DNA from: an uncultured bacterium
GTDB lineage: Bacteria; Patescibacteriota; Minisyncoccia; Phycocordibacterales; Phycocordibacteraceae
Assembly: GCA_937879955.1 (NCBI GenBank)
Contig: CALFMK010000001.1
Span: 442,356 to 506,355 of the forward strand
DNA: 64,000 nucleotides
Direction: 5' to 3'
Shown piece after piece: positions 17,268 through 49,383 of this stretch; position 1 is the stretch's first letter, and each line of letters opens with the position of its first letter. Position numbers and translations under genes: made by a program. The notes beneath the pieces were generated by a model. The model searched no databases and was not told the origin of the DNA. It was given only the letters and a program-made list of their open reading frames with translations.

Positions 17268-17313
17268 CGTCCGTGCATTGTATCAAAATCGGCTCGCGGG
17301 GTATCCTCTGCGT

Positions 17314-18857: not shown

Positions 18858-18859
18858 TG

Positions 18860-19609: not shown

Positions 19610-19649
19610 GCCTCTATAGTAGCAGGTAGGAATCGGCCCGGGAGCGATA

Positions 19650-20207
19650 TCAGGGCCGCTCGTGCCTCAGGATGGCATCGAGCGCTTCCGGGAACGCCGC
19701 CATGGGCGTGGGGTAGCCGAAATGCTGCCTGTCCGGAAATTCGGCATACTCGCTCCCGAGCTTCTCATGCACGAAACGGCTTTCTTTGATCGGTATCACC
19801 GGATCGTCCACGGAGCCGAACTGCGCGATCCATCCCTGGTTTTCTTTGATGGCGTCCCACTGCCACGGGTCCTTGTAGTAGCCGGAGACCTTCTCGAGCA
19901 GCGAGCCGAGGTCGGTATGGCAGGCACCGACGAGCACCGAACCCCTTATCTTATGGGTCTCCGCGTACCGCATCGCGGCGACAGCTCCGGACGAGTAGCC
20001 CACGAGTATCGTATGCTCGTCCGCACCGAGCTTCTCGATGTACGGGAGCCAGACCGACCTCCTCGCCATGAAGTTGTCGGGGAACGTAGGGCTCACCGCA
20101 GGGATGCCGCGCTTCCCGAGCTCTTCGGCGAGCCACCCGAGCCACTGCGTGTTGCCGGTGCCGCCGGCGTTCCCGTGGATGATGATGGCCTTGATGGAGG
20201 GTTCCAT
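19650..20207 (-). CDS. Small alpha/beta hydrolase (YdeN/RBBP9-like serine hydrolase)
   Basis: 185 aa; GYSSG nucleophile elbow. Confidence 0.7.
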   Translation of the reverse strand: MEPSIKAIIIHGNAGGTGNTQWLGWLAEELGKRGIPAVSPTFPDNFMARRSVWLPYIEKLGADEHTILVGYSSGAVAAMRYAETHKIRGSVLVGACHTDLGSLLEKVSGYYKDPWQWDAIKENQGWIAQFGSVDDPVIPIKESRFVHEKLGSEYAEFPDRQHFGYPTPMAAFPEALDAILRHERP

Positions 20208-20253
20208 CGCTCCATTCTACTGGCGAAGGCGCTCGCGTCCTGTGCATAGAGAA

Positions 20254-20281
20254 AGCCGCGCGACCACATGGTCGCGCGGCT
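20254..20281 (-). terminator. Perfect 11/12-bp-stem hairpin 3' of the DUF4406-like gene
   Basis: agccgcgcgacc-acat-ggtcgcgcggct followed by a U-rich tract on the minus transcript. Confidence 0.65.
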
Positions 20282-20288
20282 CTTACGC

Positions 20289-20810
20289 CTACGCAGCGCA
20301 CGGAGACAGCCAGGCCTCGGGATAGAGCTCGGCCGGAATGCCGCACGAACGGACGAACTCCCATTCCCAGCGCGCGCCGCGGGACGACTCCCATCCGGGC
20401 AGGAAGAGCGCCCGTGACACATGGCCGCATCCGAGGATCCTCCGATAGAAGACTTCCAGGATATCGGTGCAGTATGCGCCGCCATCATGGTGATCGGTCA
20501 CTCTGATGATCGCCTGCTGGAACGGGATCTGGTCGAACACCAGGAGGCCCTGTCCTCGCGCACGCTCTATGGCGAGCGCGAAGCGCTCCATGTTCTTCGG
20601 AAGCGTCCCGAGCCCTCCGGTCGTCATGGGCCCGCAGATCTGGATTATCTCCCGTCCCGTCACGCGCATGCGCTCGAGGATCGTCACGCCGACATGGCCT
20701 GCCTCTTCGAGCGTCCTTGCGGCTCGAAGAGATTCGATATGCGCTTCGGTCCAGTGCTCGTCGAACGATGTCACCGTCCTCTCCTTATTGTTATTGGTCC
20801 GTAGGGACAA
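20289..20810 (-). CDS. Hypothetical protein with a DUF4406-like (nucleoside 2-deoxyribosyltransferase-like) core
   Basis: IQICGPMTTGG..N...F motif reminiscent of DUF4406; a possible shorter start at 20669; 30 bp downstream of pilB. Confidence 0.4.
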   Translation of the reverse strand: MSLRTNNNKERTVTSFDEHWTEAHIESLRAARTLEEAGHVGVTILERMRVTGREIIQICGPMTTGGLGTLPKNMERFALAIERARGQGLLVFDQIPFQQAIIRVTDHHDGGAYCTDILEVFYRRILGCGHVSRALFLPGWESSRGARWEWEFVRSCGIPAELYPEAWLSPCAA

Positions 20811-20841
20811 TACGCGCGCGCAGGCGCGCTGTCGAGCGGAG

Positions 20842-22557
20842 CTACACGGCCCTGAGGACCTCCTCGATCGAAGTCATGCCTTGTGCGGACTTGTAGAGCC
20901 CGTCCTCGAGCATCGTCAGCATGCCCTCTTTCCGGGCCTGAGCCTCGAGCGCTTCCGGCGTGCCGCCATGCAGGATCAGCTCTCGGATCGCCGACGAGAC
21001 CGCGAGCACCTCGTGGATGCCGATGCGTCCGGCGTAGCCGTCCTCGCATGCAGGGGACGGGACCGGCCTATAGAACGGCATCGCATCGAGCGACATGCCT
21101 TCCTTGATGAGCTTCTCTTCCGAGAGCGCCGCGAGCACGCGGTCGAACCGGTCAGCGTCCGCGATCTCTGCCCGCTCCGTCCTGTCGAGCGCGTACTGCT
21201 CCTTATCGTCGCAGAGGCGACGGACCAGCCGCTGTCCCACCACCAGGCGCAGCGTGGAAGCGAGCAGGAACGGCTCGACGCCCATGTCGATGAGCCGCGC
21301 TATCGCGCCTGCGGCCGAGTCCGTATGGATCGCCGAGAGGACGAGATGGCCCGTGAGCGCCGCGTTGACCGCGAGCGACGCGGTCTCCGCATCGCGGATC
21401 TCCCCCACCATGATGATGTTCGGATCCTGCCGCAGGAGCGCGCGGAGCCCGTTCGCGAACGTGAGGCCGGCGGCCGGATTGACCTGCGTCTGGTTAACGC
21501 GCTTCATCTGGTACTCGATCGGATACTCGATGGTCGATATGTCGACGTCCGGCGTATTGAGTATGTCGAGGAGCGTATAGAGCGTCGTGGTCTTGCCCGC
21601 GTCGGTCGGCCCGGCGACGAGGATGATGCCTCCGGCCTGCTTCATCGCCGCATGCACGCGCTCGAGCCCGGCCCCGTGGAATCCGAGCGTATCGAGCGTG
21701 AAGCCCTCGCCGGTCTCGCGCAGGAGCCGCATCACGATCTTCTCCCCGAAGTAGGTCGGCAGCGTCGATACGCGGAATGAGACTTTTTCCGTCTCAGTCT
21801 CCATCTTGAAGCGCCCGTCCTGCGGCAGACGCACCTCGCCCACCTTCAGGTCAGCGAGCCCCTTTACGCGCGCCGCGATGCTCGGAGCGGCTGCGCGCGG
21901 GAGCGTCATGGCATCATGCAGCGCGCCGTCGATGCGATAGCGCACGAGCATCTCGCTTTCCATGGGCTCGAGATGGATGTCGGACGCCTTCTGGATGATG
22001 GCGTGACGCAGGAGCGTATCCACGATACGCACGGTCGGCAGGTCCTCGCGAACGGTATCCTTCTCGTCCATGAGATTGATGCGGCCGACCTCGGCCGAAA
22101 TGAGGTCGCCGAACTCATCCTTGAGGGACTTCTGATACTGCACGAGCGCGCCCTTGAGCGAGCTCTCGTCAGTGAGGCGCGGAAGGATGCGCAGGCCGGT
22201 CTTCTTCCGTACGGAATCGATCGCCGGAAGGTCCTCGGTATCGAGCATGGCGACTTCGAGCTCTTCTCCGTCCCTCTTATAGGCGACGATGCTGTGCGTG
22301 CGCGCGATAGGTTCCGGGATGAGCGAGAGGACATCGAGTCCTATCTTCCGTTCCTTGAGGCTCACGAACGGTATGCCGAGGACATAGGACTTTATGCGGC
22401 GGAGCGAATCGCTCGAGAGGAGGCCCTGCGCGATGAGTACGTCGCCCACCGATTGCTGCTTCTGCTTCGCGTCGATGTCCGCAGCGTCGACGTCCTTCCG
22501 GGACACGAGCCCAGAGTCGAGTATGAATGCCTTGAGTTCGCTTTCAGGGACTTGCAT
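20842..22557 (-). CDS. pilB: Type IV pilus / type II secretion assembly ATPase (PilB/GspE family)
   Basis: 571 aa; Walker A GPTDAGKTTT, GEIRD, His-box region. Confidence 0.9.
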   Translation of the reverse strand: MQVPESELKAFILDSGLVSRKDVDAADIDAKQKQQSVGDVLIAQGLLSSDSLRRIKSYVLGIPFVSLKERKIGLDVLSLIPEPIARTHSIVAYKRDGEELEVAMLDTEDLPAIDSVRKKTGLRILPRLTDESSLKGALVQYQKSLKDEFGDLISAEVGRINLMDEKDTVREDLPTVRIVDTLLRHAIIQKASDIHLEPMESEMLVRYRIDGALHDAMTLPRAAAPSIAARVKGLADLKVGEVRLPQDGRFKMETETEKVSFRVSTLPTYFGEKIVMRLLRETGEGFTLDTLGFHGAGLERVHAAMKQAGGIILVAGPTDAGKTTTLYTLLDILNTPDVDISTIEYPIEYQMKRVNQTQVNPAAGLTFANGLRALLRQDPNIIMVGEIRDAETASLAVNAALTGHLVLSAIHTDSAAGAIARLIDMGVEPFLLASTLRLVVGQRLVRRLCDDKEQYALDRTERAEIADADRFDRVLAALSEEKLIKEGMSLDAMPFYRPVPSPACEDGYAGRIGIHEVLAVSSAIRELILHGGTPEALEAQARKEGMLTMLEDGLYKSAQGMTSIEEVLRAV

Positions 22558-22675
22558 GCTGCGTAGTATCTAAAGTATAGCGTGTCGATGCGTCGCATCG
22601 TCTCACGTAACGGACCCGCGACGGGGAAAAGGCTCTTTCGTTCTCTAGCGATGCTGCATGCCGTAGAATGAAGAC

Positions 22676-23407
22676 ATGCACCGTCGCGCTTCGGAGAAAG
22701 GCTTCACGCTCATCGAGCTCCTCGTCGTGATCGCCATCATCGGCATCCTCTCGACCGTCGTGCTCGCGAGCCTCGCCACCGCGCGCGAGCGGGCGCGTAT
22801 CGCCGCGGCGAAGCAGCAGGATGCGTCCCTGTATCACGCGCTCGGGTCCGATCTCGTGGCGGCGTGGGATTTCGACGAGGGCAGCGGCACCGCCGTCTCC
22901 GACAGCTCCGGGGGCGGCAACAACGGCACGTATCCGACCCCGACATGGACGACCGCCTCGCCATATCCCTCCGGAAACGCGGCATCGTTCAACAACGGCA
23001 CGTACGCGACCTTTCCAGCGGTCCAGGGCCTTCCTTCGAATACCGTCACCGTGAGCGCGTGGGTATACCTAACGAATCATCGGAATTGGAACAATATCGT
23101 AAGAAACAACTGGATCGGTAATGGCTGGCTTCTCTTTACGGATGTGAACGGGAGTGCAATATTCGGCGTCGGACAGGGCAACACCCAATACACGACCAAG
23201 GGAAGGACCCAGATGTCACTGAATGCCTGGCATTTCATCGTCGGCACCTATGACGGCACGAAGGTCTCTATCTACGTAGACGGCGTGCTCGACGGCACCC
23301 CAACAACGATCACAGGCGCCGCACTTACTAATACCGGGTCCATAGAGGTGGGTCAGGGCACCATCGGATACGTCGATCGTGTACGCATCTACACCGGAAC
23401 TCCCTGA
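22676..23407 (+). CDS. Type IV pilin-like protein with a C-terminal LamG/concanavalin-like domain
   Basis: Prepilin N-methylation motif KGFTLIELLVVIAIIGIL; C-terminal LamG-like region (WHFIVGTYDG...IYVDG). Confidence 0.75.
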   Translation: MHRRASEKGFTLIELLVVIAIIGILSTVVLASLATARERARIAAAKQQDASLYHALGSDLVAAWDFDEGSGTAVSDSSGGGNNGTYPTPTWTTASPYPSGNAASFNNGTYATFPAVQGLPSNTVTVSAWVYLTNHRNWNNIVRNNWIGNGWLLFTDVNGSAIFGVGQGNTQYTTKGRTQMSLNAWHFIVGTYDGTKVSIYVDGVLDGTPTTITGAALTNTGSIEVGQGTIGYVDRVRIYTGTP

Positions 23408-30358: not shown

Positions 30359-31564
30359 CTAGAGGGCGTCTATCGCGTCATCTGCGTAATCCTGCGCCTC
30401 ATCGGCAAAATCGACTGCGTCGCCATAGTCTCCGTCGTCATAGGCATCCTCGGCATCATCGAGGGCGTCGTAGGCCTTGTCGAGGAGGTCCTCCGCCTTG
30501 CTGATCTTCGAACTCGAGCTGTCTGAGTCGTCGATCTCATCCTCGGCGTCCTGAATGGCATCCTTCGCGTCTGCTATCGCCTCCTTGGCGTCGGCCTTAT
30601 CGCCACCCTTGCTGCTACTCTCACCAATATCGTCGAGCGCCTCATCTATCGCATCCATGGCCTCGTCGACGTAATCGACCGCATCGTCGTAGTCTCCGTC
30701 GTCATAGGCATCTTTCGCGTCGTTCAAGGCATCTTTCGCGTCAGAGAGGAGGTCGTCCGCCTTCCCGGCATCCTCACCGTCGTCATACGCCTCATCGACC
30801 TTATCCTTCGCGTCGTCATAGGCATCCTCGGCATCATCGATGGCATCCTTCGCATCCGTCTTATTTCCGCTGCTATGGCTGCTTCCCCCGAACTCATCGT
30901 ACGCGTCGTCGATCGAGGACTTCGCGTCATCCGCGAGGTCCTGTGCCTCGCTGTAATCCTCCTCCACGAAAGCATAGAGCGCGTCGATGATGCTCTCCTG
31001 CGCTTCAGCAAGGTAGGTCTTGGACTTTCCGAGACCATCGCCGTCATCCTTGGCTTCCTCGTAATCATCCATCGCGTCCTCGTACGCGTCGCGTACGTCG
31101 AGAATCGCGTTACGGGCGTTCTTCTGTGCCGTTGATTCAACAGGAGTCGTTGGAGTCGGTGTGGGGGTCGGTGTTGGCGCTGGGGTGGGCGTAGGGGTTG
31201 GTACGGACGTCCCGGACGTGAGCACGATGTACTTCGCGCGTGAGATAGGTCCAAACGTTCCTGTCGCCGGCGTGATACCGTTCGCGACCTGCCATTTCTT
31301 TACAGCGGCAGCTGTCTTCTCCTTATACTGCGTAGTTTCATGACCAGCCGATCCGACACCTGATGTCGAGACCGTGAACCCCTTTGAGTTCAGGTACTGC
31401 TGCAGGCAGCGCACCGCTTCGTTTTCTGTACCAATCTCGAGATTGGTCGTGAACGTGCAGGTCGCTGCGCGAGCACCGACGGGAATAAGAAGTGCGCCTG
31501 CCGCAAGGAGCAAGACGAGCGCAAGGAACGCAGCATTCGAGCGCTCGAGAGTAGTGGTATTCAT
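30359..31564 (-). CDS. Secreted protein: peptidoglycan-binding domain, (PT)n linker and a long acidic D/A/E/Y-rich imperfect-repeat region
   Basis: Signal peptide; PG_binding_1-like motif (CLQQYLNSKGF...AVKKWQVANGI..TG.FGP); PTPTPAPTPTPTPTPT; repeated DDAKDAxDDAEDAYDDGDYDDAVD units, mirrored by DNA-level repeats at 30436 and 30810. Confidence 0.7.
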   Translation of the reverse strand: MNTTTLERSNAAFLALVLLLAAGALLIPVGARAATCTFTTNLEIGTENEAVRCLQQYLNSKGFTVSTSGVGSAGHETTQYKEKTAAAVKKWQVANGITPATGTFGPISRAKYIVLTSGTSVPTPTPTPAPTPTPTPTPTTPVESTAQKNARNAILDVRDAYEDAMDDYEEAKDDGDGLGKSKTYLAEAQESIIDALYAFVEEDYSEAQDLADDAKSSIDDAYDEFGGSSHSSGNKTDAKDAIDDAEDAYDDAKDKVDEAYDDGEDAGKADDLLSDAKDALNDAKDAYDDGDYDDAVDYVDEAMDAIDEALDDIGESSSKGGDKADAKEAIADAKDAIQDAEDEIDDSDSSSSKISKAEDLLDKAYDALDDAEDAYDDGDYGDAVDFADEAQDYADDAIDAL

Positions 31565-31707
31565 ACGCGAGATGATCATGAGTAAACGTTCCGGACTCGT
31601 ACGCAGGTACGGTGGATATACATGAAAGGATAGCACGCACGCCAACATGAATTTCTTGAAGCAATCGCCCTTACAAGAAAGAGCCTTGTTTCAAGTATCA
31701 GTAAAAA

Positions 31708-31731
31708 GAAAAGCGCCATTCGGGCGCTTTT
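31708..31731 (-). terminator. Bidirectional hairpin 3' of the tRNA-Gly(UCC)/tRNA-Pro transcript
   Basis: aaaagcgcc-attcg-ggcgctttt flanked by an A-run and a T-run. Confidence 0.7.
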
Positions 31732-31744
31732 CTTTTTATTTGAG

Positions 31745-31815
31745 TGCGGGATAGGAGAATCGGACTCCTGCTCTCAGTTTGGAAAACTGATGTTCTACCA
31801 TTAAACTAATCCCGC
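31745..31815 (-). tRNA. tRNA-Gly (anticodon UCC)
   Basis: Manual cloverleaf: GCGGGAT acceptor, anticodon loop TTTCCAA, T-arm AGGAG-TCCGATT-CTCCT (atypical C55), 71 nt, CCA not encoded. Confidence 0.7.
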
Positions 31816-31840
31816 TTTTGCGCAGAGATCAGGTATTCGG

Positions 31841-31911
31841 TCGGGGTGCGGAGAATTGAACTCCGTCTACTTGTTCCCAAAACAAGCGTACTACCGGTAT
31901 ACGACACCCCG
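31841..31911 (-). tRNA. tRNA-Pro (anticodon UGG)
   Basis: Manual cloverleaf: C1-G72, anticodon loop TTTGGGA, T-loop TTCAATT, discriminator A, CCA not encoded. Confidence 0.75.
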
Positions 31912-32108
31912 ACTCAATACCCGATCCTGCAGCCTGGAAGGCTCGGATGGCACAGGACACACCTTCTCACAAATCTCCTGTCTTCGCTATCCTAACAGAT
32001 TTATTGGATTTGTGTCAGGTGGTCATGAGACCAAGGCTATGTCCTTAGGATTGCCTTTTATACTGGCATTATTCACATGCCTTGGGCGGTCCTACTTCCT
32101 CAAGTTTC

Positions 32109-32195
32109 TTAGACACATACCCTTCCTCTCAGATAAGGCCTTAAGAAATACATTATAAAATATAGGTTATTTAGGAAATATGAAATTTTCTTCAT
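32109..32195 (-). CDS. Candidate 28-aa hydrophobic/aromatic micro-ORF (MKKISYFLNNLYFIMYFLRPYLRGRVCV) with a perfect AGGAGG RBS
   Basis: AGGAGG 5 nt upstream of the ATG on the minus strand, in the low-GC spacer between tRNAs; not in the ORF track (<60 aa). Confidence 0.25.
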   Translation of the reverse strand: MKKISYFLNNLYFIMYFLRPYLRGRVCV

Positions 32196-32305
32196 AAAGA
32201 CCTCCTGTCCTTTATCCCCAATGTCCCCAAACTTATCCACTGTTTTCCACACGTGAAAGACACGGCAATTATGGGTGTCTTTTTATCCCTATTGCGAAGA
32301 TTTAT

Positions 32306-32338
32306 ATGACAAAGCGCCTCAGAAAGGCGCTTTGTCAT
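32306..32338 (-). terminator. Perfect 13-bp-stem hairpin 3' of the tRNA-Arg/tRNA-Gly(GCC) pair
   Basis: atgacaaagcgcc-tcagaaa-ggcgctttgtcat. Confidence 0.65.
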
Positions 32339-32350
32339 ATCTCATATCGG

Positions 32351-32421
32351 TGCGGATAGGGAGAATCGAACTCCCGACTCGTCCTTGGCAAGGACGCGTT
32401 TTACCACTAAACCATATCCGC
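32351..32421 (-). tRNA. tRNA-Gly (anticodon GCC)
   Basis: Manual cloverleaf: GCGGATA acceptor, anticodon loop TTGCCAA, T-loop TTCGATT, 71 nt, terminal CC encoded but not the A. Confidence 0.8.
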
Positions 32422-32461
32422 TTCGGGAGGATAATAGCATATCCTTTCCCTACTTTTCCAG

Positions 32462-32533
32462 TGCTCCCGCCAGGACTCGAACCTGGAACGACAGTTCCGA
32501 AGACTGTTGTGATATCCATTTCACCACAGGAGC
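32462..32533 (-). tRNA. tRNA-Arg (anticodon UCG)
   Basis: Manual cloverleaf: GCTCCTG acceptor (one G-U), anticodon loop CTTCGGA, T-loop TTCGAGT, 72 nt. Confidence 0.7.
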
Positions 32534-32635
32534 CCCATATCGGATCCGTACCCACGAAACATGGGTAAGCCGGCTCCTTACCCGATACTACGCCACCCCT
32601 AGGAGAATGGCCATCACCGTACTAGTATTTTCGCT

Positions 32636-34099
32636 ATGAGGTTCTCCATCCCCCTTGAGGTTTCCCGTGTAACCTCTGCCCTGCGTGAGGCTGGATTTGA
32701 GGCATATCTGGTCGGCGGATGCGTCCGCGACCTCTTTCTGAAGAGAACCCCGAAAGACTGGGATATCACCACGAATGCAAAGCCGGCCCAGATTCAGGCG
32801 GTATTCCCCGAATCCTTCTACGAGAACGACTTTGGGACCGTGGGAGTGAAGACCGGAAGCGAGGACCCTTCCCTTTCCATCATCGAGGTAACACCCTATC
32901 GCACGGAAACTGGGTATTCGGATAAGCGCCGCCCTGACGCAGTATCCTTTGGGGATAACCTTGAGGACGACCTTGCCCGTCGAGACTTCACGATCAATGC
33001 CATCGCGTTCGACGATTCTAAAGGACTTATTGTCGACCCATTTAAAGGACAAAAGGACATAGAATCTCGTGTATTAAGGACAGTCGGGATTGCAACTGAG
33101 CGCTTTGAGGAGGACGCGCTCCGCCTTATGCGTGCCGTACGACTTGTGGCCGAACTTGAATTCGCGCTCGATACCGATACGGCATCAGCAATCAAGGATA
33201 AGGGGCCTAATCTTGAGCACATTTCACGTGAAAGGATTCGGGACGAGTTCATTCGCATACTGAACTCAAGACAGCCAATGATGGCCCTTGTGCTCTCCCA
33301 TCAGCTTGGAATCCTTGGCTACATAGCCCCTGATCTCATCCGTGGAGTCGGTATTGAGCAGAACCAGGCGCACAGCTACGACGTTTTCGGTCATCTTATG
33401 CGCTCAATGCAGCACGCAGCGGATAAGGATTGGGATTTCGATATACGCCTTGCTGCGGTATTCCATGACGTATCAAAGCCAGAAACCCGCCGCTGGTCTG
33501 ATGAGAAACATGACTGGACATTCCACGGGCATGAAGTCGTTGGTTCACGTGTAACCAAGAGAGCCCTTGAAAACCTTAAGTTTCCACGTGAAACGATTGA
33601 TAGAGTGAGCAAGCTCGTGCGTTGGCACATGTTCTTCTCAGATCCAGACCAGATTACCCTTTCAGCGGTACGCCGTATGATTCGCAATGTCGGCGAAGAG
33701 AATATCTGGGACCTACTCAATCTGCGCATCTGCGATCGTATCGGCACAGGACGTCCAAAGGAGCAGCCATTCCGCTTCCGACGCTATAAGGCCATGGTGG
33801 AGGAGGCCCTCCGGGATCCGATATCCGTATCGATGCTTAAAACCGATGGTTCACGCATTATGACGAAGTTCCACGTGCAACCAGGACCGAAGATAGGATA
33901 TGCGCTCCACGCGTTGCTTGAGGAAGTGCTTGAGAACCCGAAACTTAACACGGAAACCTATCTAGACACTCGGACCGAAGAGCTTCTCTCCCTTCCTGAG
34001 AATGAACTCAAGGAGTTGGGTGAATCTGGAAAGAAAAGAAGGGAAGTCGAGGAAGAGCGCGAAATCAAAGAAATTCTCGAAAAACACCACGTTTGCTAG
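32636..34099 (+). CDS. cca: CCA-adding tRNA nucleotidyltransferase (class II head domain plus HD domain), compositionally atypical
   Basis: 487 aa; GGCVRDLFL...DWDITT nucleotidyltransferase motif; HD domain FHDVSK...GHE; GC near 50% against about 65% around it. Confidence 0.85.
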   Translation: MRFSIPLEVSRVTSALREAGFEAYLVGGCVRDLFLKRTPKDWDITTNAKPAQIQAVFPESFYENDFGTVGVKTGSEDPSLSIIEVTPYRTETGYSDKRRPDAVSFGDNLEDDLARRDFTINAIAFDDSKGLIVDPFKGQKDIESRVLRTVGIATERFEEDALRLMRAVRLVAELEFALDTDTASAIKDKGPNLEHISRERIRDEFIRILNSRQPMMALVLSHQLGILGYIAPDLIRGVGIEQNQAHSYDVFGHLMRSMQHAADKDWDFDIRLAAVFHDVSKPETRRWSDEKHDWTFHGHEVVGSRVTKRALENLKFPRETIDRVSKLVRWHMFFSDPDQITLSAVRRMIRNVGEENIWDLLNLRICDRIGTGRPKEQPFRFRRYKAMVEEALRDPISVSMLKTDGSRIMTKFHVQPGPKIGYALHALLEEVLENPKLNTETYLDTRTEELLSLPENELKELGESGKKRREVEEEREIKEILEKHHVC

Positions 34100-34127
34100 G
34101 TTTGTCGGCTGTGCGACCCTTTCACGT

Positions 34128-34161
34128 GTAACAAAAGGACCATTCAAGGTCCTTTTGTTAC
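34128..34161 (+). terminator. Perfect 14-bp-stem hairpin after cca
   Basis: gtaacaaaaggacc-attcaa-ggtccttttgttac. Confidence 0.7.
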
Positions 34162-34187
34162 ATTGAGACGTTACACGTGAAATACGA

Positions 34188-34210
34188 AAGGCCTGCGTAG
34201 CAGGCCTTTG
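34188..34210 (+). terminator. Second tandem hairpin after cca
   Basis: aaaggcctgc-gta-gcaggccttt. Confidence 0.55.
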
Positions 34211-34577
34211 GGTGTGGTCAGCGGTTCATCCAGAACAAGAGAGCAGGGGGATATGGGGAAGGGGGCTTGGGATGATTGCTCTCTAATAGAGTGGGAAGAA
34301 CTGAGCTGACGGAACTGATGATTGTGTGCTTTCACGTGGAACCGAGTCGGCTAGACCCAGTAGGTGTTAGGCAGATACGCTGCGATCCGTTGGACAGTCG
34401 GCGGTAACACGCTGATATGCACGTGATAGGGAACAAAGAGCTCGCAAAGAACATCGCCTCCTGAAAGGGAAGGCGCGTCTCTCACGAGCGTTGCCGACCC
34501 CCAGGTCTTCATAGATACTACGTGTCCTATAGGACAGAGTAAAGGACAACTCTGTGGATAGAGTGGATAAATGTCCT

Positions 34578-35372
34578 TTAAAGCGTTATGGACACCGGGC
34601 AGTGGTCAGAGCCGTATATATCGTCATGTATCTCGGCGTTCTTCACCTTGGACGCGAGCTTCTTCGATACGAAAATATAGTCGATACGCCATCCGACGTT
34701 CCTGTCGCGAGCCATCCGGAAAGGGCTCCACCATGAGTAGCGACCGCTTCCTTGAGTAAAGAGGCGGAACGTATCGATGAATCCAGCCTGTATCATCTGG
34801 TCGATTCCGCTGCGCTCCTCCTTCGTATACCCATGACCGCCCTCGTTCGCCTTCGGGTTCGCTAGGTCATCGGGGGTATGCGCCACGTTCAGATCCCCGC
34901 AGAATATTACCGGCTTTTCCTTCTCGAGCCGCTTCATATAGGCGAGGAAGGCCGGATCCCATTTGTCATGGCGAAGGCTGAGGCGAGAGAGGTCTTCTTT
35001 CGAATTCGGCGTATATACCGAAACGACCCAGAATGACCCCATGTCAGCCGCTATGATGCGACCCTCCTCGTTCGGATCGCCGTATCCATCATCAGATAGG
35101 CCGTATTCCTGAGCGATGTCCTCAGGCATGCCGAAGAGCACATCTTCAGGTACCTGCTTCGTGAAAATCGCGGTCCCGCTGTAGCCCTTCTTATTCCTTG
35201 CTGAATGCCAGTACTCCTCATAGCCCATAAGGTCGACAGGGGACTGGTGCTGCTCGGCCTTAGTCTCCTGCAGACAGATGATGTCTGGTTTCAGCTGCTT
35301 AACGAAGGGCTCGAACAGGCCCTTCTTATGCACAGCCCGAATGCCATTCACGTTCCAAGAGACGATCTTCAT
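34578..35372 (-). CDS. xth: Exodeoxyribonuclease III (AP endonuclease)
   Basis: 264 aa; MKIVSWNVNGIRA...CLQETK...GDLNVAH...SDHCPV. Confidence 0.92.
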   Translation of the reverse strand: MKIVSWNVNGIRAVHKKGLFEPFVKQLKPDIICLQETKAEQHQSPVDLMGYEEYWHSARNKKGYSGTAIFTKQVPEDVLFGMPEDIAQEYGLSDDGYGDPNEEGRIIAADMGSFWVVSVYTPNSKEDLSRLSLRHDKWDPAFLAYMKRLEKEKPVIFCGDLNVAHTPDDLANPKANEGGHGYTKEERSGIDQMIQAGFIDTFRLFTQGSGRYSWWSPFRMARDRNVGWRIDYIFVSKKLASKVKNAEIHDDIYGSDHCPVSITL

Positions 35373-35422
35373 TCCTCCATTCTATAGCAAAGCCTGAACG
35401 ATCCGATGCTAGCTGCTCAGGC

Positions 35423-36331
35423 CTATCCTCTCTTCGAATGAAACTTCTTATGCACGTCCCTCAGATGACTGTCCGTCACATGCGTATAGATCTGGGTCGT
35501 ATTTATGGAGGCATGGCCGAGGAGGGCCTGGACGGAGCGGATATCTGCGCCATTCGCCAGAAGGTCGGTAGCGAACGAGTGGCGCATGACGTGCGGCGTT
35601 ACCTTCTTCGTAATGCCGGCTTTCGCCGCGTAGGTCTTGATCAGGAGCTCGATGGAGCGCGGGGTGAGGCGGGTAGGGACGCGCTTCTTCGCCTCCTTCT
35701 TCCGCGCCACGCTCACGAAAAGCGCAGGCTCCATGTCCGTACGAACCTTTAAATAGGCCCTTACGGCATCCTTCGCGGCGTCCGAGAGGAATACCACGCG
35801 CACCTTCTCGCCCTTTCCACGTACGGAAAAGTCGTCACGCGAGAGATCGAGGTCGGAATCGAGGCTACAGAGCTCGGAAACGCGCAGGCCGGTCGAAAAA
35901 AGCAGCTCGAGGATCGCCTTATCGCGAAGCGAGCGCTCGTCGTTACCCTCGGTCGCCTTGAGCAGGCGATCGAGCTCTGCATTTGAGATGAGATCGAGAT
36001 GGCGCTCAGGAACCTTCGCGAGCTCTATCTTCTCCGGCGAAAGGGAAGGGATGTCGCGCTTCCTGAGGTATTTCAGATATGCCCGAAGCGCGATGAGGTA
36101 GTAGTTCTGAGTCCTGCGCTTCATCGAGTCCTTGTTCGTTCCGGGCTGACGGTTCAGCCACATGCGGAACTCGCGCACCTTCGTCTCGGTTATGTCTGAC
36201 GCGTCCTGTATCTCGGCCCAGTCGAGGAACCGCGTAAGGTAATGGTCATAGTTCTCGACCGTCTTAACGGCCCGTCCTCGTTCTATCTCTATATACTCGA
36301 GGAATTCACGCTTCATCTGCCCCGCATCCAT
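35423..36331 (-). CDS. Tyrosine site-specific recombinase (XerC/XerD-like)
   Basis: R..H..R..Y catalytic region (HVMRHSFAT...LLGHASINTTQIYTHV); N-terminal core-binding domain; start at MDAGQMKREF. Confidence 0.85.
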   Translation of the reverse strand: MDAGQMKREFLEYIEIERGRAVKTVENYDHYLTRFLDWAEIQDASDITETKVREFRMWLNRQPGTNKDSMKRRTQNYYLIALRAYLKYLRKRDIPSLSPEKIELAKVPERHLDLISNAELDRLLKATEGNDERSLRDKAILELLFSTGLRVSELCSLDSDLDLSRDDFSVRGKGEKVRVVFLSDAAKDAVRAYLKVRTDMEPALFVSVARKKEAKKRVPTRLTPRSIELLIKTYAAKAGITKKVTPHVMRHSFATDLLANGADIRSVQALLGHASINTTQIYTHVTDSHLRDVHKKFHSKRG

Positions 36332-36446
36332 GCAAAAAGGGTAGCATGCTGCTTCGCACAATATGCCAGGGCAGGTCCTCGGCCCTGAGGAAACGCCTAC
36401 TAGGAAACACTTGCGCTCTTAATCAAGGTGTGGTAAGGTGTGGCCA

Positions 36447-36713
36447 ATGCTTACGAAACGAGTAAAGACCGCCGTCATTAAGGATGCGGCACGCCATGAC
36501 ACCGACACCGGCTCTGCCGACGTCCAGGTCGCTATCCTTAGCCGCAAGATCGACGAGCTCACCAACCATCTCAAGAAGAACAAGAAGGATTTCCATTCCC
36601 GACGCGGACTTCTCCAGATGGTCGCTGACCGCCGCACGCACCTGCGCTACCTCGAGAAGAACGACAAGCGTCGCTACAGCGCGGTCGTGAAGAAGCTCGG
36701 ACTCAAGAAGTAG
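36447..36713 (+). CDS. rpsO: 30S ribosomal protein S15
   Basis: DTGSADVQVAILSRKI..L..HLK..KKDFHSRRGLL; AAGGTG SD 7 nt upstream of the ATG at 36447 (the track's GTG at 36438 is less likely). Confidence 0.9.
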   Translation: MLTKRVKTAVIKDAARHDTDTGSADVQVAILSRKIDELTNHLKKNKKDFHSRRGLLQMVADRRTHLRYLEKNDKRRYSAVVKKLGLKK

Positions 36714-36715
36714 GG

Positions 36716-36746
36716 AATCGCGGGGCACACAGCCCCGCGATTTTCG
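36716..36746 (+). terminator. Rho-independent terminator after rpsO
   Basis: aatcgcggggc-acaca-gccccgcgatttt. Confidence 0.75.
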
Positions 36747-36818
36747 TTCGTACGCAGGTGCTAGAATATCAAGACGGCTCCTCTGAGCCGCATTACACCC
36801 TTTTAATACAGAACCGCC

Positions 36819-37331
36819 ATGCCCGTGATCAAGCATCCGGCGCAGCGTGTGGGGGTTTTCATAGATACCCAGAACCTCTACCACAGCGCCAAGCATCTCT
36901 ATAAATCCCGCGTGAACTTCGCGAAGGTCCTCGAAGAGGCCGTCGGAGACCGCGTCCTCGTACGTGCTATCGCCTACGTCATCTCAACCGAAGGTGGTGA
37001 CGAGAGTGCCTTCTTCGACGCTCTCACCAAGATCGGCATCGAGACGAAGGTGAAGGGGCTCCAGATATTCTCTGACGGCGCCAAGAAGGCCGACTGGGAC
37101 GTCGGGCTCGCGATAGACGCCGTGAAGCTCGCACCGAAACTCGACACCGTCATCATCGCCTCGGGCGACGGGGATTTCGTTCCGCTCATCGAGTACCTGG
37201 ACATGAACCAGGGCTGCCAGGTAGAGGTCATATCCTTCGGCAAGTCGTCCTCCCAGAAGCTGAAGGAAGCCGCACATGCGTTCACCGACATGTGCGACAA
37301 CCCGAAGAAGTTCATCATCGGTCACCGATAG
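36819..37331 (+). CDS. NYN-domain (LabA-like) protein
   Basis: 170 aa; VGVFIDTQNLYHS...IIASGDGDFVPL. Confidence 0.8.
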   Translation: MPVIKHPAQRVGVFIDTQNLYHSAKHLYKSRVNFAKVLEEAVGDRVLVRAIAYVISTEGGDESAFFDALTKIGIETKVKGLQIFSDGAKKADWDVGLAIDAVKLAPKLDTVIIASGDGDFVPLIEYLDMNQGCQVEVISFGKSSSQKLKEAAHAFTDMCDNPKKFIIGHR

Positions 37332-44591: not shown

Positions 44592-45590
44592 ATGGCTCAT
44601 TCTACCCGCACACTCCGCATCGTCCTGGCATCGGTCATCGCCGTCCTCATGGTGGGGAGCGCATACGTGTTCTCCGGCCCGAACCCGTTCTTCGGGCTCG
44701 GCCGCATAGCCGAGGCGCAGTCTTCCGAGGAGCTCCTCAAGGAATACGCCGCGAAGGATAGCGATACGGACGGGCTTCCGGACTGGCAGGAGGCGCTCTA
44801 TGGCACCGATCCGCTCAATGCGGAATCGTTCAAGGCAGGAACCAAGGACGGGGACGCGGTAGCGCAGGGCCTCGTCGAGCCCAAGGTCGCCGTACGGCCT
44901 GAGGAAGAGCCGACCGACCTCAGCAGCATCCCGGGCACGCTCCCTGCAGCGAACTCCGTGACCGACCGGTTCGCCCAGACGCTCCTGAAGAAGTACCTGC
45001 TCGGCCGTGGCGAGACGCCGCCGACAAGCGCAGAGATAGTGGCATTCGTCACCGCAAGCATCGACGACCTCGCGAACGAGAGCACGTCTCCGGTCACGTT
45101 CAAGCCCTCGGACGTTCGCGCCGGATCCGGCACCGGCACCGCTGCCATGACTACCTATGCCGCTCAGATGGAGGCCGCGTTCGCCGCGAATACGGTGCCC
45201 GCGGACAGGAACGAGCTCTCGTACTTCGCGGACGCCGTGAAGGGCGATGATTCCGCACTGAAGAAGATCGGCGACATAAGCAAGGCATACAAGAACATTG
45301 CGAGCGCGATCATGAAGATCCAGGTCCCTGCGGAAGCGCGCCAGGCGCATCTCGCGATCGCGAACGCTCTCATGCACATGAGCGAGACCAGCGGAGACAT
45401 GTCGATGATGGAGACCGATCCGGTCCGTGCGCTCATGGGCATTGGGCTCTATGAGCGCTACGCGAACGAGGTGGTAGCGGCCTTCACGAACCTCAGCGGA
45501 ATCTTCGTCGCGCAGCAGGTATCGATCCCGAGCGGAACGGAGGGATACTTTATCGTAAAGACTGCAGCCGACGCAGCTGCTAGCAAATAA
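44592..45590 (+). CDS. Membrane-anchored hypothetical protein with a thrombospondin-type-3-like Ca-binding motif (DSDTDGLPDW)
   Basis: N-terminal TM helix; first gene of the co-directional cluster. Confidence 0.55.
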   Translation: MAHSTRTLRIVLASVIAVLMVGSAYVFSGPNPFFGLGRIAEAQSSEELLKEYAAKDSDTDGLPDWQEALYGTDPLNAESFKAGTKDGDAVAQGLVEPKVAVRPEEEPTDLSSIPGTLPAANSVTDRFAQTLLKKYLLGRGETPPTSAEIVAFVTASIDDLANESTSPVTFKPSDVRAGSGTGTAAMTTYAAQMEAAFAANTVPADRNELSYFADAVKGDDSALKKIGDISKAYKNIASAIMKIQVPAEARQAHLAIANALMHMSETSGDMSMMETDPVRALMGIGLYERYANEVVAAFTNLSGIFVAQQVSIPSGTEGYFIVKTAADAAASK

Positions 45591-45593
45591 GCC

Positions 45594-47105
45594 ATGGAAC
45601 ACGACTACAGGAGATTCTGGTTCCGCGCATCGAAGGCAATCATCGCGCTCGTACTCGCCGTATCCGTCGGCAGCACCGCGCTCCCGCAGCGCGCGCACGC
45701 CATTCTCGGCGTCGGAGACGTCGTTATCGACCCGACGAACCTCGTTCAGAACACGGTCAATGCCGTGTCTTCCGCGGCAACCCACGTTAAGGAATACGTC
45801 CTCGATACGCTCGCGTGGCAGGTCGGCAACCTCGCCATCCAGTCGATGACCAAGAGCCTCGTGAACTGGATCAATTCCGGCTTCAAGGGCTCTCCCGCAT
45901 TCGTCACCGACCTCAACAGGAATCTCCAGGGGGTAGGGGACAAGGTCGCATCCGAATTCTTCGAGTCGCTCTCGAGCAATCTCGACGGCATCACGACGAC
46001 GCCGTTCCAGGACAAGGTCATCGATGCCGTGCGTCTCGGCTACTATCTCCGCACGAGCCCGGAATCGTTCTATACGAAGTATCCGTACACGCTCAACCAG
46101 GTGAGCAGCAATGATAAGGAGTTCCTGAAGGGTAAGTTCACCGAGGGCGGCTTCAACGCGTGGTTCCAGGCTACGCTCGTGCCGCAGAACAACCCGTACG
46201 GCGCGCGCGAGCTCGCGGAGAAGGTACTCTCCGAGCAGGTCGGGACCCAGGTGCAGATCCGCACGCGTGAGCTCGACTGGGGCAAGGGGTTCCTCTCATG
46301 GAGAGGGGACTGCGTCGCGACGACGCGCTCCGTGAGCGCCGCGGCTGACGCCATGAACGCTACCGGCGACGAGGAGCCGGTCGACCTCAGCGGCGAGGAC
46401 GAGTGCCTCGGCTATGAGGTGAAGACCCCGGGCTCGGTCATCATGGAAGCGATCCCGAACAGCATGCAGGCGAATATGAACCGGCTCGTGTCGGCTGATG
46501 AGCTCAATGAGATCGTCGGCGCGCTCATGAACCAGCTCATCGGCCAGGTGCTCGGCAGCGGCAGCGGGGGAGGAGGGCTCAGCGGCCTATCGCGCCCTTC
46601 GGCAGGCGGCGGCGCATCCGTTCTCGATCAGGCCACTGATTCCTCTCAGGCAGGAAGCACCCAGGGTATCAGCAGTACTTTCGCCGCGACCCTCAGCAAC
46701 CAGCGCAAGTACGTCGCGGAGTATCAGGCAGGATGGGATACGATCCGCACGGCGGCCCAGGCCGTGCCGCAGCGCTGCTCGACGAGCGGTTCCCCGTCCC
46801 CGCAGGATCTCATAGCGCGCTCGGGAGAAGCGCTCGTGCAGGCCGCGAACGGACTCGCCGCGCTCGACGCGCTCCAGACTCGCCTTACTGCAGCCCTCGA
46901 CGCAGGCGGCAGCCAGACTACGACCCTCCTCGCGATATCGGAGGACTATAACGAGCTCACCAGTTCGGATACGCTCCCGAGCGCCGAGGCTATTGCCGAA
47001 GCGCAGACAGAATCGAAGGACAGCGGGCAAAGCGAGCAGGTATCCTTCTACACCCAGATGACGCGTCTCGCATCGAGCCGCACCTGCGACGTCTCGGACG
47101 AATAA
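45594..47105 (+). CDS. Secreted hypothetical protein (503 aa) with a Gly/Ser-rich segment
   Basis: Signal peptide ...ALPQRAHA; no recognisable motif; 3 nt after the upstream gene. Confidence 0.55.
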   Translation: MEHDYRRFWFRASKAIIALVLAVSVGSTALPQRAHAILGVGDVVIDPTNLVQNTVNAVSSAATHVKEYVLDTLAWQVGNLAIQSMTKSLVNWINSGFKGSPAFVTDLNRNLQGVGDKVASEFFESLSSNLDGITTTPFQDKVIDAVRLGYYLRTSPESFYTKYPYTLNQVSSNDKEFLKGKFTEGGFNAWFQATLVPQNNPYGARELAEKVLSEQVGTQVQIRTRELDWGKGFLSWRGDCVATTRSVSAAADAMNATGDEEPVDLSGEDECLGYEVKTPGSVIMEAIPNSMQANMNRLVSADELNEIVGALMNQLIGQVLGSGSGGGGLSGLSRPSAGGGASVLDQATDSSQAGSTQGISSTFAATLSNQRKYVAEYQAGWDTIRTAAQAVPQRCSTSGSPSPQDLIARSGEALVQAANGLAALDALQTRLTAALDAGGSQTTTLLAISEDYNELTSSDTLPSAEAIAEAQTESKDSGQSEQVSFYTQMTRLASSRTCDVSDE

Positions 47106-47109
47106 CGCC

Positions 47110-49371
47110 ATGAGGAGCCCTCTCTCATTCGTACGGACAGCGATCCTCTCGGCCGCCCTGGTCCTGACACTGTTCGTAGGCGCATTTCCTGCAAATGCTC
47201 AGGTAACATATACCGACAAGCGCGGAGCGTCCTGCACCAGCTCCAGCCGGACGGTGAGCACGACGAACATCTCTACGACTGTATGTACCTTCCCGGACGG
47301 CACGAAAGAGACATGCGAGGTATCAGGATCTTCTGAGATGGGACCGAGTCCCGCGACCTGCGAGACCGTCTATCCGGACGGAAGGACGGTCTCCGGAACC
47401 TATACCGGCATCGTCGATACGAGCTGCGAGAAGGACGCGGACGGGAAGTGCAAGGAGGGCACGACGCAGGTGAACTCTCCAGCCCTAGGAGCTGCCGTGA
47501 ATGCGGTCGTGGACACCGCGAGCGACATAGTCGTGAAGCCGGTTATCTCGTTCGTTCTCGGCTTCGCTACTTTCATGCTCGGTATCGCGGGCGTGTTCTT
47601 CAACCAGGTCATGATAAAGACGGTGTTCCAGTTCAGCACGTACTTCGGCTCCTCCGAAGGACTCCTGACCGCATGGGGCGTCATGCGCGACGTCGCGAAC
47701 ATCGGCCTCCTGTTCGGTTTCATATTCATGGGAGTCCTGCTAATACTCAATGTCGACGGGGGAGGGCATGGCCACGGGCATGGCGGCGGCATCAGCGCGA
47801 AGCGCGCCATCCCGCGCCTCATTATCTTCGCCGTCCTCCTGAACTTCAGTCTCTTCGCGTCCCAGGCGGTCATCGACGTCTCGAACGCGTTCGCGTCCAC
47901 CTTCACGACCCTCGCCGGCGCAGCCTGCGATGATAATGCATCCGCGACAGACGGGGACAACGCCTGCGCGAATGTCGGTATCGCAGGAAAGGTGATGCAG
48001 CTGGCCGGCATAGCCACCATCTGGAACCCTGACATCGATGCAAGCCCTACGGTACTTCTCGGGCTTACCATATTCGTCCTAATAACGATGGTCGTGCTCC
48101 TTGCGGCAGGTCTCATGCTCGTATTCCGCGTCGTGGTACTCACCATGCTCATGGTCACGTCTCCGATCGGCTTCGCCGGCATGGTCATACCGGGCCTACA
48201 AGGGCTCGCGAGCCGCTGGTGGCACATGCTCATATCGCAGTCCTTCTTCGCCCCGGTGATGCTCCTCCTCGTGTTCATAAGCCTCAAGATGGCAGAGTCC
48301 CTGAATCCGAACGGCGCGCCGCTCGTGGACGCGTTCGCCGGAGCGAACACCACCATGGCCGGGAACCTCGAGGTGCTCGTCGTATTCGCGGTCGTCATCG
48401 GTCTCATGATCAGCTCGCTCATCGTTGCCGCGAAGATGGGCGCGACAGGCGCATCGTTTGCGACCAATACGGCAAGCGCGGTCACGTTCGGCGCCCTTAC
48501 GCGCGTCACGAATGCCAGTGTCGGAGGCACCGCGCGCGGGCTGCGTGCAGCGCAGCAGAGCCAGTGGGCAAGCAGGGTAGGGACCCGCGTGCTCGGCGTA
48601 CGCGGCGCTGCCGTAGCGGGCAAGGTTGGCGAAGTCGCCGTGAACCGGGTGCTCCGTCCGGTCGAGAAGGCGAACATGGATGTGCGGCGCGCGCCTGGCA
48701 TGGGGGCGATCCTCGGCGCAGCCGGCGTTACCGCAGGCGCGAAGCCCGCAGAGCACGCGACATACGGCGACATGGCGCATCAGGTCACCGATATCCGCGG
48801 CGGCGCAGGCGGCAAGAAGCTTGAGGCCGAATACAAGAAGGAGGTCAAGTACGCATCGCTCGAGGGCCTCGCACACGATGACAAGCTCAATGAGGATACC
48901 GCAGAGGCGAAGGAGGCCCGGAAGCTCCTCACGTCGCTCTCGACGAAGGAGCTCGAGGCGCTCCACGGCATCCAGGAGGGTGTCTCTCAGATGGCACAGA
49001 ACCTCACGCCCGAGCAGCTCGAGAATCTCCAGAAGAGCGACAAGCTCGATGACGGACAGAAGCGTACGCTCAAGGAGAAGTACGAGGAGAAGTTCGCCGG
49101 CGACAACGCGAAGCGAACGATTCCAGGTATGAATGCCGAAGGTATCGCGAAGCTCGGCGGGGGTACCGTTTCGAAAACAGAGGTACTTGGGACCATGACT
49201 GGCCGTCAGCTCGCCGCGATCAATCCGGACAAGCTGAACGCTACTCAACTCGCGACTGTACAGGCATATATCAAGAGTCAGCGCACAGCGGGCACTCCTG
49301 CCGGGAAGGAATTCGAAATGCTCCTTATCGGGAACCCAAAGACGAAGGAGCGGTGGGGAGGCTTGGTATAA
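47110..49371 (+). CDS. VirB6/TrbL-like polytopic membrane protein with an N-terminal secreted Cys-containing domain, a GGGHGHGHGGG loop and a long charged cytoplasmic tail
   Basis: 753 aa; signal peptide, about 6-8 TM helices in the middle, K/E-rich C-terminal 250 aa. Confidence 0.5.
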   Translation: MRSPLSFVRTAILSAALVLTLFVGAFPANAQVTYTDKRGASCTSSSRTVSTTNISTTVCTFPDGTKETCEVSGSSEMGPSPATCETVYPDGRTVSGTYTGIVDTSCEKDADGKCKEGTTQVNSPALGAAVNAVVDTASDIVVKPVISFVLGFATFMLGIAGVFFNQVMIKTVFQFSTYFGSSEGLLTAWGVMRDVANIGLLFGFIFMGVLLILNVDGGGHGHGHGGGISAKRAIPRLIIFAVLLNFSLFASQAVIDVSNAFASTFTTLAGAACDDNASATDGDNACANVGIAGKVMQLAGIATIWNPDIDASPTVLLGLTIFVLITMVVLLAAGLMLVFRVVVLTMLMVTSPIGFAGMVIPGLQGLASRWWHMLISQSFFAPVMLLLVFISLKMAESLNPNGAPLVDAFAGANTTMAGNLEVLVVFAVVIGLMISSLIVAAKMGATGASFATNTASAVTFGALTRVTNASVGGTARGLRAAQQSQWASRVGTRVLGVRGAAVAGKVGEVAVNRVLRPVEKANMDVRRAPGMGAILGAAGVTAGAKPAEHATYGDMAHQVTDIRGGAGGKKLEAEYKKEVKYASLEGLAHDDKLNEDTAEAKEARKLLTSLSTKELEALHGIQEGVSQMAQNLTPEQLENLQKSDKLDDGQKRTLKEKYEEKFAGDNAKRTIPGMNAEGIAKLGGGTVSKTEVLGTMTGRQLAAINPDKLNATQLATVQAYIKSQRTAGTPAGKEFEMLLIGNPKTKERWGGLV

Positions 49372-49383
49372 TCGGTAGCATCC

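Follow-up and report, generated by a model that had tools for sequence, protein, structure and literature searches.

A putative parS centromere array in and beside the cca gene of an uncultured patescibacterium, at a candidate replication origin

The closest described counterpart of the element reported here is the parS system of the Bacillus subtilis type, in which sites with the near-universal consensus TGTTNCACGTGAAACA are served by the partition proteins ParB (Spo0J) and ParA (Soj). The B. subtilis chromosome carries about 10 such sites, spread over hundreds of kb. Clusters of several to about 20 parS sites, confined to 5–35 kb near parAB, are known from Caulobacter crescentus, Myxococcus xanthus and Corynebacterium glutamicum. 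Here we describe an array of CACGTG-centred palindromes in a 64,000-nucleotide stretch of DNA (denoted the window) from an uncultured bacterium of the family Phycocordibacteraceae in the Patescibacteriota (assembly GCA_937879955.1, contig CALFMK010000001.1, forward-strand positions 442,356 to 506,355). The palindromes lie in and beside cca, the gene of the CCA-adding tRNA nucleotidyltransferase. Judged by their sequence, they are very probably parS sites, that is, the chromosomal centromere of a ParABS segregation system. parS arrays are well established, and parS sites within genes are nothing unusual; new here are the lineage, the compactness of the array (7–8 sites in 1.7 kb, of which half lie in cca under synonymous constraint) and its interleaving with DnaA-box modules of a probable origin unlinked to dnaA and with an additional conserved motif.

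With the B. subtilis type the array shares the palindrome core, the multiplicity of copies, the location of many of them within genes, the parS-type discriminating bases and a position near a putative origin. It differs from that type in its far higher density, in the absence of parAB beside the sites, dnaA or the origin-like region within the searched loci, and in its host, an uncultured member of the Patescibacteria; no description of parS for this family was found in a literature search. The clusters of Caulobacter, Myxococcus and Corynebacterium are likewise composed of close-set sites that act as one centromere and form one large ParB complex near oriC. Those clusters, however, stand beside parAB and a few kb from oriC, whereas the array described here spans only about 1–1.7 kb, has no adjacent parAB and lies among or beside DnaA-box modules. 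On chromosome 2 of Vibrio cholerae, the origin region itself contains a parS2 site, and the initiator is modulated by ParB2. There, as at the origins of low-copy plasmids with their adjacent centromeres, centromere sites are likewise interleaved with initiator sites, so that segregation and initiation can influence each other; these systems use replicon-specific parS and initiators of the RctB or Rep type, whereas the present sites resemble canonical chromosomal parS and accompany DnaA boxes on the main chromosome. Bipartite origins in which a gene separates two DnaA-box clusters are known from B. subtilis (incAB-dnaA-incC) and Helicobacter pylori (oriC1-dnaA-oriC2), and an oriC unlinked to dnaA is known from Escherichia coli. 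The candidate origin described below similarly has two opposite DnaA-box clusters around a gene and an AT-rich element beside one of them, but the gene in between is cca, with its parS-like sites and a motif that we call X, and dnaA is 25 kb away.

We searched the window for the 14-bp palindrome GTTTCACGTGAAAC, allowing no more than two mismatches. Eight matches were obtained, all of them within 1.7 kb (32660–34342) and none elsewhere in the 64 kb; the number expected by chance in the whole window is 0.13, and none of 100 shuffled sequences reached eight. The bare hexamer CACGTG behaves differently: it occurs 18 times in the window versus 13.7 times expected from shuffles, which amounts to no window-wide enrichment, and half of the copies (9/18) fall within 32250–34425. 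A preliminary description of this DNA had listed about eight such palindromes. Every palindrome that it quoted is present in the sequence, and the local enrichment that it claimed is borne out. Its coordinates were off by 0–14 nt, the true starts of the 13- to 14-mers being 32246, 33222, 33543, 33582, 33869, 34120, 34170 and 34330. The site at 32660 (GTTTCCCGTGTAAC), which lacks CACGTG, had not been listed, and the one at 32246 is only a half-site. A ninth CACGTG within the island, at 34420, had been overlooked and has no conserved flanks, and the hexamers outside the island number nine instead of the four that had been spotted. The array does lie in the low-GC island where that description had placed it; the parS identity of the sites, the DnaA boxes and the AT-rich element had not been recognised.

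Four of the sites are located inside cca (32636–34099, plus strand), whose product contains the Pfam domains PolyA_pol, PolyA_pol_RNAbd, HD and tRNA_NucTran2_2 and which also hosts copies of motif X. Site 1 (ATTTCACGTGAAAG, 33221–33234) covers codons 196–200, encoding ISRER, and has two mismatches to the GTTTCACGTGAAAC core. Site 2 (GGTTCACGTGTAAC, 33542–33555; codons 303–307), site 3 (TTTCCACGTGAAAC, 33581–33594; codons 316–320) and site 4 (GTTCCACGTGCAAC, 33868–33881; codons 412–416) are all GTTTCACGTGAAAC matches. The amino-acid contexts reported earlier for these four copies (SRE, SRV, PRE and HVQ) are correct. Three further matches follow the gene: site 5 (CTTTCACGTGTAAC, 34119–34132), 20 nt past the cca stop codon, and site 6 (GTTACACGTGAAAT, 34170–34183) and site 7 (CTTTCACGTGGAAC, 34329–34342), both in the spacer between cca and xthA. 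The right half of site 5 is at the same time the left arm of a terminator-like hairpin of cca at 34127–34162. This hairpin, directly 3′ of the gene, has a perfect 15-bp stem (TGTAACAAAAGGACC / GGTCCTTTTGTTACA), and the AAGGAC/GTCCTT core of motif X is present in both of its arms.

Two additional sites are of lesser quality. The weak or young site at the 5′ end of cca (32660–32673) has the core CCCGTG in place of CACGTG; it is common only to the closest relative examined (L003), and its codons are unconstrained across the clade. The degenerate half-site TCCACACGTGAAAG (32246–32259) overlaps the DnaA box at 32243–32251 and shows five mismatches when scored as a 16-mer. In outgroup loci (see below), perfect parS sites are found just after a DnaA-box pair, that is, at the position of this half-site, which is probably left over from an array at the upstream position, as in the outgroup clade.

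To assess conservation, we compared 80 cca loci from species-representative genomes of relatives (Paceibacteria/Kaiserbacteria; 61–87% CCA identity), each with at most 10 kb of flank. With the 14-mer criterion, 401 sites were counted in the cca zone, defined as cca together with 3.5 kb of upstream and 1.2 kb of downstream sequence, versus 8 in the 930 kb outside it. The median is five sites per locus over a span of about 0.75–1 kb, and the cca zone has 25 times the flank density of parS-type 16-mers (up to three mismatches). In clade A, comprising the 62 relatives with at least 69% CCA identity, sites recur at fixed offsets within cca, each in 44–54 of the 62 loci: +585 (site 1, 48/62), +906 (site 2, 44/62), +945 (site 3, 44/62, plus some outgroup members) and +1232 (site 4, 54/62). 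One to four extra sites occupy the 3′ spacer, with counterparts of site 5 at +1464 to +1483, of site 6 at +1523 to +1560 and of site 7 at +1645 to +1750. In the more distant outgroup clade, the array is located 0.4–3.4 kb upstream of cca, between the same tRNA genes and beside the same DnaA-box pair, and a few of these genomes also hold the +945 or the +1232 site. The tRNAs-cca-xthA address is thus conserved while single sites turn over within about 4 kb. Turnover of sites within one address is typical of a functional cluster and not of a sequence relic.

The intragenic sites allowed DNA-level selection to be separated from protein-level selection. We aligned 81 cca genes codon by codon and assigned codons to parS when their third position lies inside a parS core. 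In the carrier clade, the synonymous codon entropy was 0.66 bits in the cores versus 1.50 bits in the rest of cca (Mann-Whitney p = 2e-7). The same columns in the outgroup clade gave 1.33 versus 1.48 bits (p = 0.24). Codon choice within the cores of the carrier clade is nearly fixed: serine is encoded by TCA in 87–96%, arginine by CGT in 82–96%, glutamate by GAA in 87–88% and Val414 by GTG in 98%. For site 1, the TCA, CGT and GAA codons are accordingly 87–96% fixed among the synonymous choices; in site 2 the codons GGT, TCA, CGT and GTA are constrained, and in site 4 His413 is encoded by CAC in 86% alongside the fixed Val414. These statistics confirm that the constraint on the cca-internal copies acts on the DNA and not on the protein, as purifying selection, in line with what the preliminary description had proposed from the differing amino-acid contexts. 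A separate notion, that CCA is unusually conserved owing to the embedded sites, was rejected: its mean identity is 76%, compared with 88% for the NYN-domain protein, 81% for rpsO, 80% for mgsA and 77% for rny.

The consensus of the array identifies its type. Alignment of the 320 clustered CACGTG sites of the relatives yielded the 14-bp consensus GTTTCACGTGnAAC, with information at four flanking positions on each side, whereas none was detected in the flanks of the 214 isolated CACGTG sites of these loci; the flank conservation beyond the hexamer that had been noted in the window is thereby extended to the relatives. The consensus of parS is TGTTTCAC-GTGAAACA, and that of the related site bound by Noc is TATTTCCC-GGGAAATA (Jalal et al., PMC7383237). 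Over all informative positions, GTTTCACGTGnAAC equals the core of parS, and the Noc site differs from it at the discriminating positions. Of the readings that had been put forward for the array as a target of a dimeric DNA-binding protein, the partition option is therefore the one that fits: the sites match canonical parS of chromosomal ParB, form an origin-region cluster and are conserved in 80 related species.

Several observations weigh against this assignment. All sites of the window have two mismatches to the 14-bp core and three to four to the 16-mer parS, and the outermost T/A of the 16-mer is weakly conserved in the sites of the relatives. A search of the 64-kb window, of 82 cca-centred loci totalling about 1.3 Mb and of four dnaA loci found neither parA nor parB; the other ~530 kb of the genome lay outside it. 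The search combined Pfam annotation of about 60 open reading frames of the window, on both strands, with tblastn and phmmer searches using Pfam-validated Spo0J and Soj probes. The dnaA neighbourhoods of three relatives, retrieved by DnaA homology, have the same synteny and no parAB. A literature search on parS, ParB or oriC in Patescibacteria, Parcubacteria or the Candidate Phyla Radiation (CPR) returned nothing relevant. Because no parB gene was located in the searched DNA, the existence of a cognate ParB and ParA is something that we infer.

These points bear most directly on the alternative that the palindromes are operator sites of another dimeric protein, such as a transcription factor or an origin-specific regulator controlling cca, the tRNAs or initiation. 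The missing parB gene and the weakly conserved outer positions of the 16-mer speak for such a protein, and other origin-associated factors clearly bind the region because the sites interleave with DnaA boxes and motif X. Yet the 14-bp consensus agrees with the parS core at every informative position, and 5–12 sites over about 1 kb, mostly in coding sequence and the 3′ spacer, are unlike promoter regulation. Origin-proximal clustering of parS is reportedly the hallmark of ParABS systems (Lin and Grossman 1998 and Livny et al. 2007, as cited in PMC7383237), and the clustering of exactly the parS sequence near a putative origin makes a separate regulator unparsimonious. We consider this alternative unlikely.

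A second alternative is that the array consists of Noc-type nucleoid-occlusion sites or of sites of another ParB paralogue. Noc-binding sites (NBS) are scattered genome-wide. The schematic in Figure 1 of PMC7383237 is consistent with such scatter, and according to the same source Noc is a ParB paralogue with a similar 16-bp palindrome and is restricted to Firmicutes. Within the array, the CCCGTG core of the 32660 site resembles NBS in one half. The discriminating bases are nevertheless of the parS type, with the core CAC|GTG instead of CCC|GGG and G (56%) instead of A (10%) at position 2 of the clustered sites, and the 1.42 Mb scanned contained 304 parS-type versus 13 NBS-type 16-mers. No NBS-like site (TATTTCCCGGGAAATA) is present in the island, the best match of the window, at 51998, having four mismatches. 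The clustered consensus GTTTCACGTGnAAC and the 304 versus 13 16-mers together indicate that the sites are parS-type rather than Noc-type; the confinement of Noc to Firmicutes and the single tight origin cluster formed by the sites likewise argue against Noc, which we regard as very improbable here.

The preliminary description had also raised a methylation or restriction-related motif. CACGTG is a 6-bp palindrome, and 6-bp palindromes of this kind are typical recognition sequences of type II enzymes, so that selection or avoidance might have produced a cluster. The hexamer is, however, neither depleted nor enriched across the window, and the conserved 4-bp flanks on each side are restricted to the clustered copies. 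Nor would a strain-variable restriction-modification system yield a cluster whose position is conserved across species with genomic GC contents from 39% to 65%; there is very little probability in this reading. The weakest candidate derives the array from a decayed mobile element with repeats, as the preliminary description had likewise suggested, or from a horizontally acquired island whose low GC would mark foreign DNA. In its favour, the region lies 10 GC points under the rest of the window, and a tyrosine recombinase gene and tRNA genes adjoin as in a typical island. This reading is hardly credible, given that the whole block is syntenic in 80 species, that the repeats are only about 15 nt long with no longer unit, terminal inverted repeat or target duplication, that the intragenic copies occupy identical codon positions across species and are synonymously constrained, cca being an essential housekeeping gene, and that the GC content of cca tracks genomic GC (slope 0.67).

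If the palindromes are parS sites, established ParABS biology predicts the following course of events. A ParB dimer of the Spo0J type would bind each 14- to 16-bp inverted repeat through its helix-turn-helix domains. Upon binding of cytidine triphosphate (CTP), stimulated by parS, ParB would close as a clamp and slide onto the adjacent DNA, and the 7–8 loading sites could in this way build a dense partition complex over the tRNA-cca-xthA locus. A gradient of the ParA ATPase would then move this complex and, probably with SMC being loaded as well, separate the new origins. The presence of ParB and ParA, the binding, the CTP-driven spreading and the recruitment of SMC are all drawn by analogy with the known systems. 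Because the array is embedded in the most likely origin, the centromere would be copied and captured as soon as replication begins.

The case for that origin begins with the DnaA boxes. Using TTATCCACA with up to one mismatch as the definition of a box, we found 13 boxes in the window versus 4.45 expected, a number reached by none of 100 shuffles; eight of the 13 are located within 32069–35334. The upstream module (32206–32251, plus strand) reads TGTCCTTTATCCCCA, 12 nt, TTATCCACT, g, TTTTCCACA, with boxes at 32212, 32233 and 32243 and a further box at 32069. The downstream module (34523–34580, minus strand) reads TGTCCTATAGGACA, TAAAGGACA, actc, TGTGGATAG, AGTGGATAA, a, TGTCCTTTA and abuts the stop codon of xthA. 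The two modules are thus oppositely oriented. Another box is found at 32950–32958.

The same arrangement is seen in the relatives: boxes show a 4- to 10-fold enrichment on either side of cca, and their orientation and pairing are conserved. Across 81 loci, box density in the 2 kb upstream of cca is 0.75–1.19 per kb, 4–6 times the background of about 0.18 per kb, and the bin from +1500 to +2000 contains 73 boxes (1.85 per kb), including 27 perfect ones. A pair of upstream boxes in the same orientation, spaced 21 bp start to start and with conserved flanks, was detected in 34 of the 81 loci at the one-mismatch threshold, and the downstream module is kept in nearly all relatives. The conserved upstream layout consists of an AT-rich tract followed by TGTCCTTTATCCCCA, 12 nt and TTATCCACA/T. 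Whether measured over 40, 60 or 100 nt, the AT maximum of the 64-kb window lies at about 32100–32200, 12 nt from the upstream box module; the 60 nt at 32141–32200, with 17% GC, form a candidate DNA-unwinding element, and an AT-rich tract precedes the DnaA-box pair at the same place in the relatives. DnaA-trios beside the boxes were sought by eye, and none was convincingly recognised.

Gene orientation and strand composition were examined as further indicators. A switch in gene orientation fits best at 32.5–36.4 kb, where 43–45 of 58 genes are co-oriented with replication, versus 31 of 58 for a switch at dnaA. Across the loci, GC skew changes sign at cca (p = 1e-11): 82% of them have negative skew on its left and 65% have positive skew on its right. 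One result counts against an origin at this place: the raw cumulative GC skew of the window has its minimum near 57–61 kb, by dnaA, and not near 33 kb. After correction for the coding strand the GC3 skew favours 30–38 kb while the all-position skew is ambiguous, so that the outcome depends on the positions used. Third codon positions of all genes carry a strong coding-strand skew towards C over G, with a coefficient of about −0.09 to −0.11. Raw GC-skew calls of the origin are unreliable in this genome because coding-strand skew masks replication skew.

The dnaA gene itself (58860–60209, plus strand; Pfam) stands in the classical rpmH-rnpA-yidC / dnaA-dnaN arrangement, 25 kb from the array, which corresponds to about 4% of the 591-kb source contig; cca and dnaA are also 25 kb apart in GCA_002398375.1. 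Around dnaA, neither a DnaA-box cluster nor parS nor motif X is present, be it in the window or in three relatives (L083–L085), and the rpmH-dnaA spacer of the window has no DnaA box at up to one mismatch. This spacer (58760–58860; around 9880–10000 in L083–L085) does contain a conserved TGTCCACAGGATA / TGCACAGGATA element with one weak DnaA-box-like sequence, as well as promoter-like hexamers (TTGAC...TATACT). The element probably serves dnaA autoregulation and not an origin.

Since DnaA-box clusters flank cca, an AT-rich segment adjoins, gene orientation switches and dnaA lies 25 kb away without boxes, the tRNA-cca-xthA low-GC island is, with reasonable probability, the replication origin (oriC), with the centromere embedded in it. 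A DnaA-regulated promoter region or a DnaA-titrating cluster are the alternatives for the boxes at cca.

The third conserved element of the locus, motif X, is the 9-mer TGTCCTTTA/TAAAGGACA. Its distribution is almost entirely local: 338 exact copies were found in 1.35 Mb of loci, 333 of them within 2.5 kb of the cca start and only five in the other 957 kb. The motif overlaps the first upstream DnaA box (32206) and brackets the downstream boxes as an inverted repeat. Four direct copies on the minus strand (WAAGGACW; 33019–33082) lie within cca, at 33019, 33043 (an exact TAAAGGACA), 33051 and 33074. The motif recurs at this locus among the relatives (L003–L082); its direct copies inside cca number three to four. 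Codons 128–147, under these copies, show the lowest synonymous entropy of cca outside the parS cores, with fixation of Lys129 as AAA (98%), Gly130 as GGA (93%), Gln139 as CAA (95%), Lys140 as AAG (96%) and Asp141 as GAC (95%).

Taken together, the three elements suggest a family-specific composite of origin and centromere at tRNA-cca-xthA, in which a dnaA-unlinked bipartite oriC flanks cca, parS sites are interleaved and motif X forms a third component; we give this view an even chance. In some species the parS array lies within 100 bp of the putative initiator sites. Motif X would in such a composite serve an origin factor as its binding site, or be recognised non-canonically by DnaA itself. 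Were the composite real, initiation, ParB loading and segregation would be mechanically coupled within about 2.5 kb in ultra-small cells.

The Patescibacteria (CPR) make up a large, mostly uncultured share of bacterial diversity with ultra-small cells, and our literature search found nothing on chromosome replication or segregation in them. For one large family, the present analysis offers a sequence-defined putative centromere, with about five canonical parS sites in about 1 kb, and a strong origin candidate that is not adjacent to dnaA. Positions of origin and centromere would become predictable in hundreds of metagenome-assembled genomes, which would be of use for genome rotation, for replication rates from coverage slopes and for assembly checks. 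The array and its boxes would also provide defined DNA substrates for the biochemistry of CPR ParB and DnaA, and the conserved 9-mer is flagged as a further candidate for factor binding.

CCA homologs at 78–100% identity are found in Patescibacteria, and the homologs of CCA and DnaA are labelled Patescibacteria, Paceibacterota, Parcubacteria or Kaiserbacteria. Upstream of cca, four tRNA genes on the minus strand (Gly-TCC, Pro-TGG, Gly-GCC and Arg-TCG; 31744–32533) are interleaved with the upstream origin-like module; the same tRNA set precedes cca in the relatives, and it is between these tRNAs that the outgroup array lies. By Pfam, the left part of the window contains, in order, fusA-rpsG-rpsL, lexA-dinB, comEC, recJ, pgk, tpi, pilB, pilin, nusA, ppa, clpP, rny and mgsA. 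These are followed by the four tRNAs (minus strand), cca (plus), xthA (minus), an xerC-like recombinase gene (minus), rpsO, the NYN-domain gene, uvrD and ksgA, and then by a conserved cluster resembling a type IV secretion system, yidC-rnpA-rpmH (minus) diverging from dnaA, and dnaN. The block of tRNAs, cca, xthA, the xerC-like gene, rpsO and the NYN-domain gene is the one syntenic in the 80 species.

The low-GC island (31000–37000) has 49–53% GC versus about 62% and takes in the four tRNA genes along with cca, xthA, the xerC-like gene and rpsO. The slope of 0.67 across relatives rejected the idea that the GC content of cca is held constant regardless of genome GC, and the cca of the window lies, by estimate, roughly 4–5 points under the regression prediction of about 56%. 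An explanation by structured RNA was likewise rejected, Rfam finding only the four tRNAs.

Some features lie farther from the array. On the left side of the window, a LexA-type S24 peptidase gene beside that of a Y-family polymerase forms an SOS-like pair (8511–10409), and the DNA-uptake and pilus genes comEC, recJ, pilB and pilin are found at 13613–23407. A conserved cluster of about 11 genes on the plus strand (44592–57474), upstream of yidC-rnpA-rpmH-dnaA, includes PrgI-like, TraC-like and VirB4/TraG-type P-loop ATPase genes and is thus similar to systems for type IV secretion or conjugation, although most members have no Pfam match; the cluster is not a recent insertion because it is syntenic in all relatives examined (L083–L085). 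Finally, a second, smaller GC dip (48%) is located at 6001–7000, near the end of an LCAT-like gene and a small open reading frame at 6752–7105.

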